A stretch of 64,000 nucleotides of DNA from Elusimicrobiota bacterium (GCA_016180815.1 JACPAN010000013.1:54939-118938), one strand, 5' to 3'; counted from the first letter of the stretch, positions 21,331 through 39,300 are shown. A program made the numbers and translations. Notes: generated by a model from the sequence alone, not told the origin.

Positions 21331-24300
21331 ATGAAAGGGAAAAAACATAGTCGAGGAAAGCGCAAGGTTCCGCAGACTGATCTGAGCATCCTCTACCTTT
21401 TATCCGAGCGGGAAAAGGCGATCAGCCCCAAAAAATTTTTTAGCTTTGTAATCACGCCCACTATTAAGGTTCTCAAAGAAACCAAACATTGGACCCCGAA
21501 GTCTTTTATCAGCATTCTGCTGGCCATCTCGATTTTGCTCACCGCCCCAGGTTTTGAATGTTACCAGGCATTGGGGTCTGCTCTTGAGGCATCGGGGCCC
21601 AAGGAAACCGCTTTAAACGTCCAAGCTTTATGCTTTGTGCCCCGATCTATAGCCACGGCGCGCTTGGAGCTGGCCTTCCAATCCCTGGGAACTCTCTCGC
21701 CGGCTCCGGTCTGGAGCAACGAGACCAAAAGCGCCGTGGCTGATTTTCTGGAGCGCCATGCCTGGGCTGAAAACCCGGCCGGCTGCGCCGATGTTCATGC
21801 CATTGTCACGGATAAAGAAGTCCAGGTATCGCGCGGTTCCTTTTTGTTTTCCGGCCGCTTGGCAGCCACGGACATAAGGGGAAAAACGGAAACAGCCCTG
21901 ATCGTCAAAGCCTATATCAAAAAGAAAGACGGTTATATTCCTGTGGCCAATTTTCTGGATGAACAATATTTTGGTTCAGGCGAGATGGTGAGACATAGAA
22001 TCCGCCCCGGATTAGGAGCCAAGGCGGTTCATGATGTTATTGCCACCAGCTTCAAGCGTCATCCTGTGGCCAAAATTTGGAAGGAAACAGGCGAAGAAAC
22101 AAAAGCCAATTACACGGCTTATGAGGAGCCGGACTTTGCCACGCTGTACGCCAAAAAATTTGAAGAAATACCGGTTTTGCGCGAAGTGACCGATATCGGC
22201 AAAAGCGCGGTGTTGGGCACGGTCGGCCTTGTGCACCATGGCGCAGGAGGAGCGACCGCAGCCGCCGGCGCCCTCGCCGGTTACTTCGGTGAAAAAGATT
22301 TATCGAAACGCTTAAAAGCCGTTTCCGACGGCGCTCACGCGGCCGGTTATGCGACCTGGGCCGATGTCGGCATCAGCGGACTGACCAAAACCGAAGATTC
22401 CAGAGAGCGGGCTCTTTTGGCCGCCGGGGAATACCTTGACCCTGCGGAAGTGGATGGTTTGGCCATTGAAACGCATAAAAGTGGGATCAAGTGGATCGGA
22501 CCAAGGAAATACTACGCCATGGTTTTCGGCGACCGTGGAATAAAAACATTGGAAGCTCTGACCGCAGGCATTCACGGGGAATGGTCCTCGGAACATGCCG
22601 CCTCCGAATATTTTAAATACGCGGAAAAAGCAAAGGGAGCGGCCAAATACGCTTGGATGGGAGCCGGGGTGTTGACGGCCACGGGCCGCATGCTTTTGGA
22701 ATCAGCTCCCTTGATGCTGGCCATGCCTGCCGTTGAAACCGGCGCAGCAGCCGCAGCCGCCCGTGGGGTTCATCTGGCCGAAGGTTCGGCCCGGGCGGCT
22801 ATGGCTGCTGCGCGAGGCGTTCATGTGGCCTTTAAAACAGGGGTCCTGTCCACCATGGTCGGCATCCCCATGGCCCTGGAAGGCGCGGCCACCGTCACAT
22901 CCGCCAAAGAGTATTTGAAAAATCCGGAGAATCCGTACGCGGTTTCAGCGCTGTATCAGCATATCGGGGGACTGGCTACGTCCATGATCGGTCTGCCTGC
23001 TTTTGCCAAGGTCTATGGGAAGGCTTCAGCCGCCATTGAAAGAAAAGTCGGTGGTTTTGCCAAGGCCGCCCCGGTTGCTGCGAGCAAAGAAGTGCTTGCT
23101 TTGGATGAGGCTGGAAGCCGCCTGGCCAGAGCCGTTGACGAAAGGGCCGGCGGGACAACCGGAACCGGGGAGGTCGCTCGAGCGATCAACCATTACAACG
23201 AACAATTAAAGGCCCTTTTTGACTCAGGCAAAGTCAACAATGGGGAAGGCCGGGTCATCGAAAAACTGACCCCCGGCCAGCAAGAGCTGTACGATATGGC
23301 CATGAACGAAATAGCCAACGCCAAAAGTTCCGAGGATGTCCACCGGCTTTATTTGAAACTGGCCACCGGCGGCGGCAAAACCGTTTTAGCGGGCGGCGCT
23401 CTTTATCCCGTTGTTTCGGCCATGGCCGGCTTAAGGGGAGCGGAAAAAATCATTTATTCGGCGCCGACCCCCGAGCTTAACCTTCAGGCGAGGAATGAAA
23501 TGGCCGCGTTCCGGGGCGGAGCGTTGCCTTCCGATCTAGAATTCGCCACGCACGCCGAGCTTATCAGCCGCGCCAATCTGGAAAAAAGCGGACGCGCCGG
23601 GGCCGCTACGCCGCTTGAGAAATCCGCCCTGCTTTTGGATGAAGCGGACGCGCCCTTTACCGAGCCCGCCATCAGCCACGGCAAGCCATCGGGAACAATC
23701 CCAAAAACTTACGCCGACAAGACCGGCAAGATCGCGGAAAACCCGGTTTATACCCTGCTTCGTTCCATGAGAGACCGCACCGAGATGCTGTCTTCGTCAT
23801 TGCGAGGAGCGAAGCGACGAAGCAATCCCATTAATGAGATTGCTTCGGCTCCATCGGAGCCTCGCAATGACGGTGGTATTGGATTAAACCGCGGCCTTGA
23901 ACTTGAAGCCGGCCGATTTGCCGAACGTTTTAAGGCCGTTGCCCGCGACTCCTCATTGCCCAAAGAAATCAGAAGCGGCGCCGAGCACTATGCCAAGAAT
24001 CCTAATGCTTTAAAAGAAATCAAGAATTTCTCCGAAGCCTTTTTATCGTTGGATTCTTTGGGCGGCCGCTACCGCGTGGACAATAAAGCCGGACGCATCA
24101 TCCCCAAAACAGAGTCAGGAACCTGGAGCGAGACGCTGGACATCCCAGCGCGCCGCTACCTGGAACTCAAACATAACTTGGATGTCACCAAACCCTACGA
24201 GCACAAATCCGTTTCCAATATGGCCGATGTTTTGGAAAGGGCCAAGGTGGTTATGGCTTTTTCCGGAACCAAGCCCCAAGCCATTGAAGGCACGCTCAAG

Positions 24301-36300: not shown

Positions 36301-39300
36301 GATCCAGCCAATTACCGACGACTGCTTTACGCCGTCTTAGATAAGGAACTCACCAAATACGAAGATGATACCGGCGACCTTGTCCTGGCTATGCTCAAGC
36401 AATGGGAGGAGCAAGCCGGGGACTTGCCTCTTGAGGAAACCGTCAGCGTCTTGACCGCCTTAATGGAGAAATATCCCGCAGCCAAAAAAATGAGAAAGAA
36501 AATCGTCAAAGCTCTGGCCAAGCTTGGCGCGGATCCGATTGAACCTTATGACCCTGAAAAAGACGACCCTTATTTACAGGCGGCCATCCATGAAGTTGAG
36601 TCAGACAGGCAGCCATCTCAAATGACGGCTGAGGAATTAAAGGCCGCCATTGACAGGCTCCATGAACGTCAACATGCGGTAAACCCGCTCCTTCTTGCCT
36701 CTCCCCTTGAGGGAGAGGCCGCGCCCGGCGCGGGTGAGGGGTCCGTCTCGAATTCGGGGGGCACCATACTTAATTCAGGTCTGGATTCCCGCTTTCGCGG
36801 GAATGACGACGGGGAGAACGGGGAAAGGGGCATGGCGCTTTTGGGGAGCATGATCGTTGCAGGATTGGCGGGGTTGGGTTCGATGGTTTTGGTCAAAGGC
36901 GGTTTGGGTTTTGGGGGACTGATTCTGGCCGCTGGCGCGGCGGCATTGGTGGCGGGGATGGCCTTGTTGGGTAGGGGAAATGGTGAAAAAAATCACGCGG
37001 TTTTTGCCCTAAGGTTTTTCTTTACGCCCACGCAAAAAGGGGACGGGCCTTTTGAAAAAGAGGTATTGGGGCCTGTCGGCGCGCAGGCCCTGGGTTATGA
37101 CGCGCACCAAGGCTTTTTGGTTTCCGTGCCCCAGGATAAAGTTGAGGACTTTTTATCCCGGCTCAAGAGCCGGGGACGCGGCGCCGTTGCCGTTTCCAAG
37201 GAAACTTTGCAAAAACGCGAAACCATTAAAATGGACCTGCCCACCCTGCGCTATTGGGTTTATCAAGCCGAAAATCAAGGTAAGAAAGAAATTTCCCTGG
37301 TTCAAGCCAGGTCCATTTCTGTCATTCCGGCGCAAGCCGGAATCCAGGACTCACTCGGACAGCAAAGGGCCTGGATGCCGGATCAAGTCCGGCATGACGG
37401 CTTTTCGAGCAGAACCTACATCAAATTGCCGACAAGGCTTTACGAAGATTTGACGGATGGCCATGATATTGAGCCCATGCTGACCTTTGACAATAACAAT
37501 GAGGCCGTTCATTTAAAACATCTTGGCTATTCTCTTGACGGGTATTCCATTCTCAGCATTGTAACGGGACAACCGGAAGAAGCCTTGGCCTCGACCCGCG
37601 AGAACGCCCAAGCAAGGGGTGTTGCGGAAAAAGACATCGCCCAAATTACACTGGAGTCCGGGCGGATTTTCAAAACGGAAATTCCCTTGGGACCCCAAAT
37701 AATGATGAAAGTTAAAAACGAAACGATCATCGCATCGCAGTTGGCGCATTTGATTTTAAATTTTGAGGATAAAAGGGATTCTATTTTACTTTCAGTTGAT
37801 GAATTTAAAGAAATCTCAATCCCTAAGCCCAGGCGCGCCTGGCTGCAATGGCTTGACCCAGCCGGGACAGCTTCTTCCATCGCCGCCTTGGGCGCCACCC
37901 TGTTGGCTCCTCTTCTCATGGGCATGGCTCCGACGGGAGGGGGTTCGGGTTTGGGTCTCTTGTTATTCCTTGGGCTCGGGGCCGTTGGCCTGGGAATCGC
38001 GCTTTTTGAAAACTGGCCGGTCAGATTTCCCCGCACTTTCGATAAAAGCGACGGCTACTTTAATGCCGCACCGGGCGCAGGAGCAGTTCCAAAAGATCAT
38101 GAACCATTCGTCGCGGTAAAAAACCCCCATACTTTCGCCGACAATGCCAGGCTTAAGGAAGGGACGCCGTTTCATGGCCGCTCGGTATGGGATTACTCAA
38201 TTCCTTTGAATCAGGACATCAAGCTTGTCTATGCCCAAAATGCTCCCATGGCTGCCTGGACCGACGGCAAAGCGCTTTGGGTCGCGAATTTAAGAAACGG
38301 AGACATTCTAGTGGACGGTGGCATCAAAACGGATCAAACCATCCAAGAGATCGCTTTTTCTCCTGATGGCGGGAAACTGGCTTTTGCCATTAACGACACC
38401 TCGGTTAACAAAACGCAGATCCATATTGTTTCGTTTGAAGAGCGGACTTTTTGTTGGCTTACGACCATAAGGGGCGGTTTTACCAAAGGCCTCGCCTATG
38501 ACGACAAAGGCAAAATTTTGGCGGCGGTCACGACGGTTGACGGCTACGATAAGGTCACTCTCTGGGATGTCGAAAGAGGCGCCTTGGATCGCATAAGCCT
38601 ACCTGCCAAAGCGGCGCCCGCCAATGCCATTAAACACTGGAAAGGCGAAAGTTTTATTCTAACGGGGGATGGGGACAAGGCGGATATCATGGTTCTTGAG
38701 CCAACATTTACGTCTGACCAAGCATGGTTAAAAGCGTGGAAAAAACCAAGAGGAAAAATTGAGCCGGCGATCGTCATGCCTATACCCGCAATTCAAAAGA
38801 TTTTTATATCCGATCGAGATGGCCGGCTCTATGTCGCCGATTTGTTCTCAAACCAAATAAAAATTATGAAAGAACCAAAAGACGACACCCGCCGCCTAAT
38901 GGCCCTGGGCTATAGAACCGATCAAGGAAATTACATGTGGCTGAAAGAACAAGAGGCTTACCAGCTCAACGACAGCGCCTTTGGCGCTTCAGACCATCCA
39001 ATCGCTCAAGTGCGTTTCATTGACCCTGAACACCGTCTTGATCACGCGGGCCAATTCATCGCCCTTCAACCGGAAGGCAAATCCCTTGCTTTTGTTCGCG
39101 AGGGGACTCTTCACATAGTTCAATGGGAAGGCTATGGGATTGCAGCCGTCCCTCCGGTTGAGAAACCTACGGCTCAACCTGTTCAAGAAGCGCCGCCGTC
39201 TTGGCAAGTCCAACGCGAGGAAATCGCCGGCCGCATGGATATTTTCGACATCCGCGCGGTTGTCGCCAGATTGGCTGCTTGGCGGCAGGGGAACACTCTG

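Follow-up and report, generated by a model that had tools for sequence, protein, structure and literature searches.

NTS/SRM-type hairpin repeats read in frame within a giant open reading frame of an Elusimicrobiota bacterium

A stretch of 64,000 nucleotides (nt) from an Elusimicrobiota bacterium (GCA_016180815.1, JACPAN010000013.1:54939-118938), hereafter the window, contains a giant open reading frame (ORF) that stays open through seven sites of palindromic hairpin repeats. These sites are dispersed DNA repeats of two sequence types; judged by sequence, one is the published NTS/SRM hairpin repeat, and the other appears to be a further member of the same class. The window thus holds an in-frame occurrence of a known repeat class, resembling that of the Rickettsia palindromic elements (RPEs). 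The phylum is a new one for the class, and the copies are unusually dense within this one giant gene. Our reading, to which we give a probability of about 60%, is that repeats of the NTS/SRM superfamily landed in the giant gene and were kept where they were in frame and tolerated.

Hairpin repeats inside the giant ORF

The product of the giant ORF was identified by exact look-up as NCBI MBI2070341.1, hypothetical protein HYT79_07025 of an Elusimicrobiota metagenome-assembled genome (MAG). All seven sites reported by the first-pass annotation lie within this ORF, and all of the peptides it had quoted (VIASEAKQS, SLRATGEAIS, EIASPxARND, VIPAQAGIQ and LDSRFRGNDD) appear in the translation of the ORF (Table 1). 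Its count of five inverted pairs and two solo arms held for the five pairs and for the solo hairpin at site 6, while site 7 proved to be a doublet, giving six doublets and one solo hairpin in the ORF. Its assumption of one repeat family had to be abandoned, as two sequence types were found. Type 1 has the layout GTCATTGCGAG-[variable mini-hairpin]-CGAAGCAATCTC, spacer, GAGATTGCTTCG-[variable mini-hairpin]-CTCGCAATGAC, and the type-2 hairpin, present at sites 6 and 7, has the sequence GTCATTCCSGCGAAAGCSGGAATCCAG. The right arm of site 7 (window 37371-37398) is CTGGATGCCGGATCAAGTCCGGCATGAC, read as WMPDQVRHD, and its stem is unlike that of the left arm yet self-complementary, so each arm keeps its own hairpin.

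Folded as single-stranded DNA (ssDNA), the doublets of the ORF gave z-scores of -4.6 to -8.0 against dinucleotide shuffles, a far better fold than the shuffles have; the nine doublets of the window, six in the ORF and three outside, are 58-99 nt long with z-scores of -3.2 to -10. Chance is excluded by this folding, by the profile search described below and by a 26-mer search, for which 0 matches are expected in shuffles. At site 3 the palindrome continues outward with AACTTCC flanks, and at sites 3 and 5 it reaches 8-15 nt past GTCATT with AAyTTCC (27120-27134 / 27223-27237 and 34942-34956); some type-1 copies may be part of a longer composite element of ~118 nt.

Table 1. Coordinates of the giant ORF, its repeats and related features. 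Positions refer to the window, except in the last three rows, which give positions on contigs of other genomes; aa, amino acids; z, fold z-score.
Feature	Coordinates	Strand	Remarks
Giant ORF	21331..39546	+	6,071 aa; modular
Site 1, type-1 doublet	23796..23871		76 nt; read SLRGAKRRSNPINEIASAPSEPRND; z -6.75; ~50 aa past the DEAD motif of a weak helicase-like region
Site 2, type-1 doublet	25213..25299		87 nt; read VIASETKQS...KIASPKARND; z -5.07; between two hydrophobic segments
Site 3, type-1 doublet	27135..27222		88 nt, right end AATGAA; read SLRATGEAIS...EIATDPVGPRNE; z -8.0
Module, aa ~1975-2257	27253..28101	+	full-length homology to free-standing ~290-aa proteins; ExxH and DEVGH motifs
Site 4, type-1 doublet	28132..28218		87 nt; read VIASEAKQS...EIASPGARND; z -7.11
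Third-family half-copies (CCCTCACCCTACCCTCTCC)	28690-28712, 35920-35942		in frame in the giant ORF, PPHPTLSP and NPHPTLSR
Site 5, type-1 doublet	34864..34941		78 nt; read VIASPPKAGVAIPGALEIASPVARND; z -5.84; Pro-rich stretch, ~40 aa ahead of a membrane hairpin
Third-family hairpin cluster	36682..36745		GCCTCTCCCCTTGAGGGAGAGGC...GGTGAGGGG, read NPLLLASPLEGEAAPGAGEG; 36 nt upstream of site 6
Site 6, solo type-2 hairpin	36781..36808	-	28 nt; 28/28 to the NTS consensus CGTCATTCCCGCGMAVGCGGGAATCYRG; read LDSRFRGND
Site 7, type-2 doublet	37320..37398		78-79 nt; left arm TGTCATTCCGGCGCAAGCCGGAATCCAG read VIPAQAGIQ; z -4.62
Type-2 doublet, intergenic	41179..41277		degenerate right arm
Type-2 doublet	54342..54420		upstream of the signal peptide of a TPR protein; z -9.97
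Type-2 doublet, intergenic	59321..59378		left arm is a perfect NTS match
GIY-YIG gene, Afipia (L060)	7352-7711		type-1 termini on both sides
GIY-YIG gene, Helicobacter (L073)	639-926		type-1 termini on both sides
GIY-YIG gene (L054)	5596-6093		abuts a doublet; ORF runs into the repeat, C-terminus ...VIASEAKQS

The resemblance among the sites reflects dispersed DNA repeats rather than a protein motif, because arms agree at up to 32/32 positions, whereas the sequences that flank them are unrelated. At site 3 the left arm matches, at 32/32 positions, the reverse complement of site 5's right arm and, at 33/34, that of site 4's right arm, identities that take in the inner hairpin, which is variable between genomes. 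The 200-nt flanks of the seven sites share a single 28-nt match, which corresponds to the starts of two paralogous membrane hairpins that lie downstream of sites 5 and 6, where repeat types and distances differ; segmental duplication as the source of the repeats was rejected on the ground of these unrelated flanks. The similarity among repeats spans opposite strands and different reading frames, and a profile built from arms of other genomes only matched all 10 type-1 arms of the window (E 2.5e-12 to 0.011) and no further sequence in it. Together with the occurrence of the same family in other phyla, mostly between genes, this bears out the earlier proposal that they are dispersed copies of hairpin repeats. 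None of the seven sites is bordered by direct repeats such as target-site duplications would leave.

An artefact of assembly through repeats, or an ordinary repeated protein motif, is scarcely credible as an explanation. Short-read assemblies do break in these repeats. One contig assembled independently from short reads (Logan contig L002) shows no difference as far as site 1 and stops within its left arm (window ~23826); this supports the left junction of that site and shows that the repeat is multi-copy in the sample. Seven chimeric joins that leave an 18-kb frame open are implausible, the inner hairpins differ between the arms of sites, unlike collapsed repeats, and the similarity crosses strands and frames and reaches intergenic DNA of other phyla.

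A third hairpin family, missed by the first-pass annotation along with the three type-2 doublets outside the ORF and the membership of the NTS/SRM class, also occurs in the ORF. Its cluster forms with site 6 a mosaic of two hairpin families (36682-36745 and 36781-36808).

Repeat class and copies in other genomes

The paper on the Ssn nuclease family (Nat Commun 2025, PMC11893778) describes the NTS as CGTCATTCCCGCGMAVGCGGGAATCYRG, containing the old dRS3 repeat, together with a degenerate Ssn-related motif (SRM). These repeats are oriented hairpins, present in multiple copies in many phyla and often on both sides of an ssn gene, a small single-domain GIY-YIG gene of cd10448 type; the NTS is bound and cut solely as ssDNA, on one strand, by SsnA, a GIY-YIG protein of 94 aa, and the GTC ahead of the stem and the C behind it are critical for Ssn cleavage and binding (PMC11893778). 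[quoted passage not shown] The same paper draws a parallel with REP/BIME and IS200/IS605 and places the repeats around genes, with in-frame or intragenic copies going unmentioned (PMC11893778).

By sequence, type 2 is this published repeat. The SRM motif has seven type-2 arm matches in the window against 0.16 expected, and the NTS consensus is matched with 0 mismatches by two type-2 copies (36781-36808 and 59321-59348) and with 2-4 mismatches by three. A GTC-(stem)-loop-(stem)-C fold is formed by all type-2 arms and by 9 of the 10 type-1 arms. Neither an Rfam scan nor a tRNA scan found a match in the window. The longest ORF call of the TPR protein next to one of the outlying doublets (54255-55166) reads that doublet as RHSGESRNPG...FRRYDG; because the signal peptide begins after the repeat, this N-terminus is likely over-called, and the doublet (54342-54420) probably lies in the 5′ leader with the true start downstream.

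Type-1 doublets were recovered from at least 120 loci in a scan of the genomes of 100,044 species, with dozens in one Afipia MAG and others in Novosphingobium, Opitutales, Nostoc, Helicobacter, an Omnitrophota MAG, Legionella, Chloroflexi and other Alphaproteobacteria. Their consensus, GTCATTGCGAG..CGAAGCAATCCAG / CTGGATTGCTTCG..CTCGCAATGAC over 63-97 nt, ends in the same AATCCAG as type 2. Among the matches listed, most copies lie in short open stretches, that is, between genes, and the sole recurrent gene with type-1 termini on both sides encodes a GIY-YIG protein of ~95-120 aa; the proteins of the three GIY-YIG genes in Table 1 match Pfam GIY-YIG with E-values of 1e-13 to 1e-16. Type-1 arms keep GTC before the stem and C after it, with GTCATTGCGAG and GCAATC invariant in the alignment, and their stem is bipartite, made of ATTGC/GCAAT and a variable inner mini-hairpin. 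Complementarity of the inner stems in arms of other genomes (2.58 bp against 2.15 bp in shuffles) is a modest excess, and covariation is not claimed from it. A BLAST search of one doublet against plasmids returned a single Novosphingobium match and was uninformative. Because the layout is shared and GIY-YIG genes are flanked by type-1 termini, we read type 1 as Ssn-associated, which suggests a further member of the GIY-YIG/Ssn-associated repeat class.

[quoted passage not shown] Two inverted hairpins with a short spacer in 60-98 nt are the exact REPIN layout, terminal inverted repeats are present, and the Ssn paper itself likens its repeats to REP/BIME and IS200/IS605 (PMC11893778). However, the lack of target-site duplications speaks against DDE-type MITEs, the repeat-flanked gene is, among the matches listed, a GIY-YIG gene and not a Y1 transposase, the 5′ head is GTCAT and copies match the NTS exactly, and no RAYT was noted in Pfam scans of the window, in which ORF coverage was incomplete and no systematic RAYT search was made. 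This assignment is improbable.

Reading frames and protein context

The first-pass annotation had described the same element as read in different frames, which proved correct for the left arms, read GTC-ATT in four cases and G-TCA-TT in two (two of the three frames), and incorrect for the right-hand termini, all seven of which are read xAT-GAC (..ND or ..HD). At the right terminus AA-TGA-C would be a stop, and the other open frame, A-ATG-AC ('LAMT'), is used by none; the frame in use yields a hydrophilic E-I-A-S...R-N-D, compared with R-L-L-R...L-A-M-T in the alternative.

How often an insertion would preserve an ORF was estimated from 88 distinct doublets of other genomes (among the matches listed). 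Their length is a multiple of 3 in 31%, 38%-53% of orientation-by-phase combinations are stop-free, and both conditions together are satisfied by 14.8% of random insertions across orientations and phases. With ~15% of random insertions preserving the ORF, selection alone therefore explains the in-frame state and no special mechanism is needed. An independent case was found in another phylum, in Helicobacter sp. 15-1451, where a 691-aa DNA-methyltransferase-like ORF with a DPPY motif (contig L075, 67-2142) carries a type-1 doublet at 1781-1869, in frame as ..RHCEQSEAIQKQSQIQNMDCHEVVPTSRND...

Little of the giant protein is recognised by Pfam. ResIII/DEAD scored weakly near aa 645-730, PEP-utilizers and PPDK_N form a pair at aa ~3530-4023, and the C-terminus gave WD40-like signals that are weak. 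Soluble modules alternate with repeated two-helix hydrophobic membrane hairpins (aa 1344, 1879, 2591, 5529 and others), several of which share the motif LLGMAxPGGG or the start (D/E)RGxALLGS, a layout of beads on a membrane. When aa 1230-2400 were searched by phmmer against 1.84 billion representatives, homologues appeared for aa ~1975-2257 only, as complete ~290-aa proteins of 40-56% identity that belong to no Pfam family. Word-indexed searches, which weigh at most 8,000 candidates, returned no homologues for aa 1200-2400, 600-1200 and 5220-5510; the word index was apparently saturated, seemingly by repeat-derived and low-complexity words, because the exhaustive phmmer search did recover the homologues of aa 1975-2257. 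The helicase-like region had no match in a sequence search of the PDB, and a 29-mer from the conserved module had none in JGI metagenomes. Sites 1 and 7 could not be placed in the protein by the homologue and PDB searches of aa 600-1200, aa 5220-5510 and the helicase-like region.

The homologous module lies between sites 3 and 4. Site 3 ends ~10 aa before the start of the homologues and site 4 begins 9 aa after the C-terminal YPDRLT of the module, and the stand-alone homologues carry no repeats, but the repeats fall outside the region of homology. From the alignment with these homologues, AlphaFold2 predicted the module as an all-helical bundle with pLDDT >90 and both repeat-bearing flanks as coil with pLDDT <50; in this model sites 3 and 4 fall outside the folded module, in predicted unstructured flanks. 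A structure search with the module found only weak ferritin-like / R2lox-like (R2-like oxidase) matches (E>0.3). Sites 2, 3, 5 and 6 are within ~70 aa of membrane hairpins. Where it could be checked, at sites 3 and 4, the repeat-encoded peptides are outside folded domains, in keeping with the earlier proposal of tolerated linkers; site 5 is in a Pro-rich stretch of high predicted disorder. A simple disorder-propensity scale was clear only for sites 3 and 5 (site 5 flank percentile 1.00), so a location of all sites in disordered linkers is not claimed.

This fit with a free-standing protein also raises the possibility that the giant ORF arose from fused neighbouring genes for membrane-anchored proteins, with formerly intergenic doublets now read through as linkers after stop loss. 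The start and stop of the free-standing homologues would fall precisely at sites 3 and 4, and homologues P0002 and P0003 consist of an N-terminal anchor, a linker and a domain, an arrangement that a module of the giant protein also has. Ahead of aa 5165 the linker is a mosaic of two hairpin families, as in intergenic repeat clusters, the repeats are intergenic elsewhere in the window and in other genomes, and ORFs elsewhere do run into adjoining doublets, as the GIY-YIG ORF of contig L054 does with its C-terminus ...VIASEAKQS. Stop loss and frame matching would, however, be needed independently at many junctions. Moreover, site 3 separates a membrane anchor from its domain instead of one module from the next, sites 1 and 7 are interior to the helicase-like region and to a soluble region, respectively, neither a vestigial start codon nor a ribosome-binding site is evident at module starts, and arms that are 100% identical between sites suggest recent spread and not ancient relics. 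We consider this origin unlikely. Quite unlikely as well is the related idea that the giant gene was put together, or is being reshuffled, with the doublets as its seams, by fusion of neighbouring genes over SRM-bearing spacers or by ssDNA-nuclease-dependent exchange of modules with oppositely oriented Ssn sites at their ends (NTS-module-NTS); if true, it would provide a concrete mechanism for the growth of giant modular genes in bacteria.

The repeat loci are concentrated in the giant ORF, which holds 7 of 10 loci and 5 of 5 type-1 doublets in 28% of the sequence, in a single 64-kb sample. This enrichment could indicate that the repeats function in the gene, whether in recombination or cassette exchange at module boundaries (NTS-module-NTS) or as mRNA signals for pausing, processing or internal initiation in so long a transcript. 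[quoted passage not shown] Such a function is nevertheless highly improbable: SsnA is inactive on RNA, the repeats occupy only some module boundaries, and the enrichment is explicable by the larger number of tolerant linkers.

Elsewhere in the window, a second large ORF (9171-14654, 1,827 aa, MBI2070333.1) has neither a Pfam match nor cluster relatives. The segment 44299-54313 holds ~15 same-strand ORFs of 170-320 aa, nearly all without a Pfam match; among them are two M48-like peptidase paralogues (48498-49340 and 52629-53468) that are 44% identical, and a few weakly related pairs.

Origin of the repeats and comparison with known systems

The reading we prefer, that NTS/SRM-superfamily repeats landed in the giant gene and were kept where in frame and tolerated, would proceed as follows. 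The unit is a 5′ GTC, a semi-palindromic stem-loop and a 3′ C, usually arranged in inverted doublets, so that each strand carries one correctly oriented hairpin. In Neisseria its single-stranded form is the target of the small GIY-YIG nuclease SsnA, which binds and cuts it. Such repeats spread by what is probably an ssDNA-based copying process, normally ending up between genes. In the Elusimicrobiota genome, copies would also have landed in a very long gene for a modular membrane protein; those that survived would be a multiple of 3 in length, stop-free and situated within tolerant inter-module or linker segments, and would now be translated as short, hydrophilic, unstructured peptides. Because the copies are dispersed and near-identical, we infer that they inserted independently, each after the ORF existed. 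An Ssn-type nuclease of the source genome presumably recognises them, and the repeats themselves are probably neutral passengers.

Several observations weigh against this reading. Neither an orthologue of the giant gene nor an empty-site allele was recovered by phmmer against the 1.84 billion representatives, by word-indexed queries or in the JGI scan. A motif search, the only search made, detected no GIY-YIG (ssn) gene in the 64-kb window, and type-1 arms gave no literal match to the published SRM regular expression. All five type-1 doublets of the window are in the giant ORF and 0 are intergenic, a distribution that insertion followed by selection does not obviously predict. The use of a single right-arm frame (7/7, of two open) hints, in a small sample, at selection on the peptide. 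Finally, the module's flanks, which hold sites 3 and 4, have a low pLDDT partly by construction, as no homologues cover them.

The findings extend the NTS/SRM-Ssn repeat class to Elusimicrobiota. They also have practical consequences, since recurrent repeat peptides (VIASEAKQS, EIAS..ARND, LDSRFRGND and VIPAQAGIQ) contaminate protein databases and saturate word-based homology searches, and the repeats break short-read assemblies. Should it be true that the doublets at module boundaries reflect gene building, they would bear on the origin of giant bacterial genes.

With REPIN/RAYT systems and BIMEs the sites share two inverted short hairpins that, with a spacer, form one larger hairpin, as well as the lack of target-site duplications; like those elements, the class is normally extragenic and forms mosaics of different hairpin families (here 36682-36808). 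They differ in that the associated gene encodes a GIY-YIG nuclease and not a Y1 HUH transposase, and in a GTCAT head that is not GTAG-like. In-frame fusions with host ORFs are also known for intragenic MITEs (ERIC, Coxiella QMITE and Anabaena MITEs) and for palindromes in mitochondrial coding sequences of Nematomorpha (PMC10969869, PMC5896051, PMC6649704). These too are small inverted-repeat elements fused in frame to host ORFs, whereas they are of the terminal-inverted-repeat and target-site-duplication type or lineage-specific, and none has been reported as belonging to the NTS/SRM class or as this dense in one ORF.

Compared with the published NTS/SRM repeats, the type-2 copies are identical in sequence, with two perfect 28/28 matches to CGTCATTCCCGCGMAVGCGGGAATCYRG; the hairpins are likewise oriented, with conserved GTC and C, multi-copy and distributed across phyla, and in other genomes the type-1 copies around small GIY-YIG genes resemble the NTS-ssn-NTS layout. 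The differences are that seven copies here are in frame in one ORF whereas the published copies lie around genes, that type 1, whose stem is bipartite, is not matched by the literal SRM expression, and that the window showed no ssn gene.

A GTCAT...ATCCAG hairpin occurs in some RPEs, a similarity that serves as a lead only. RPEs are palindromic repeats that have inserted in frame into unrelated protein-coding genes and are translated, at positions compatible with the fold and function of the protein (PMC10969869, citing Ogata 2000 and 2002), and the likeness to them drawn by the first-pass annotation is apt as regards behaviour (PMC10969869). As in RPEs, the seven sites are palindromic and read in frame, here within one open frame of 6,071 codons. 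RPEs are ~100-150 bp long and form Rickettsia-specific families spread over many genes, whereas the type-1 elements described here are doublets of 76-88 nt gathered in one giant gene of an Elusimicrobiota bacterium. NTS/SRM hairpins, so far described around genes, can therefore sit inside a gene and be read in frame, as RPEs are.

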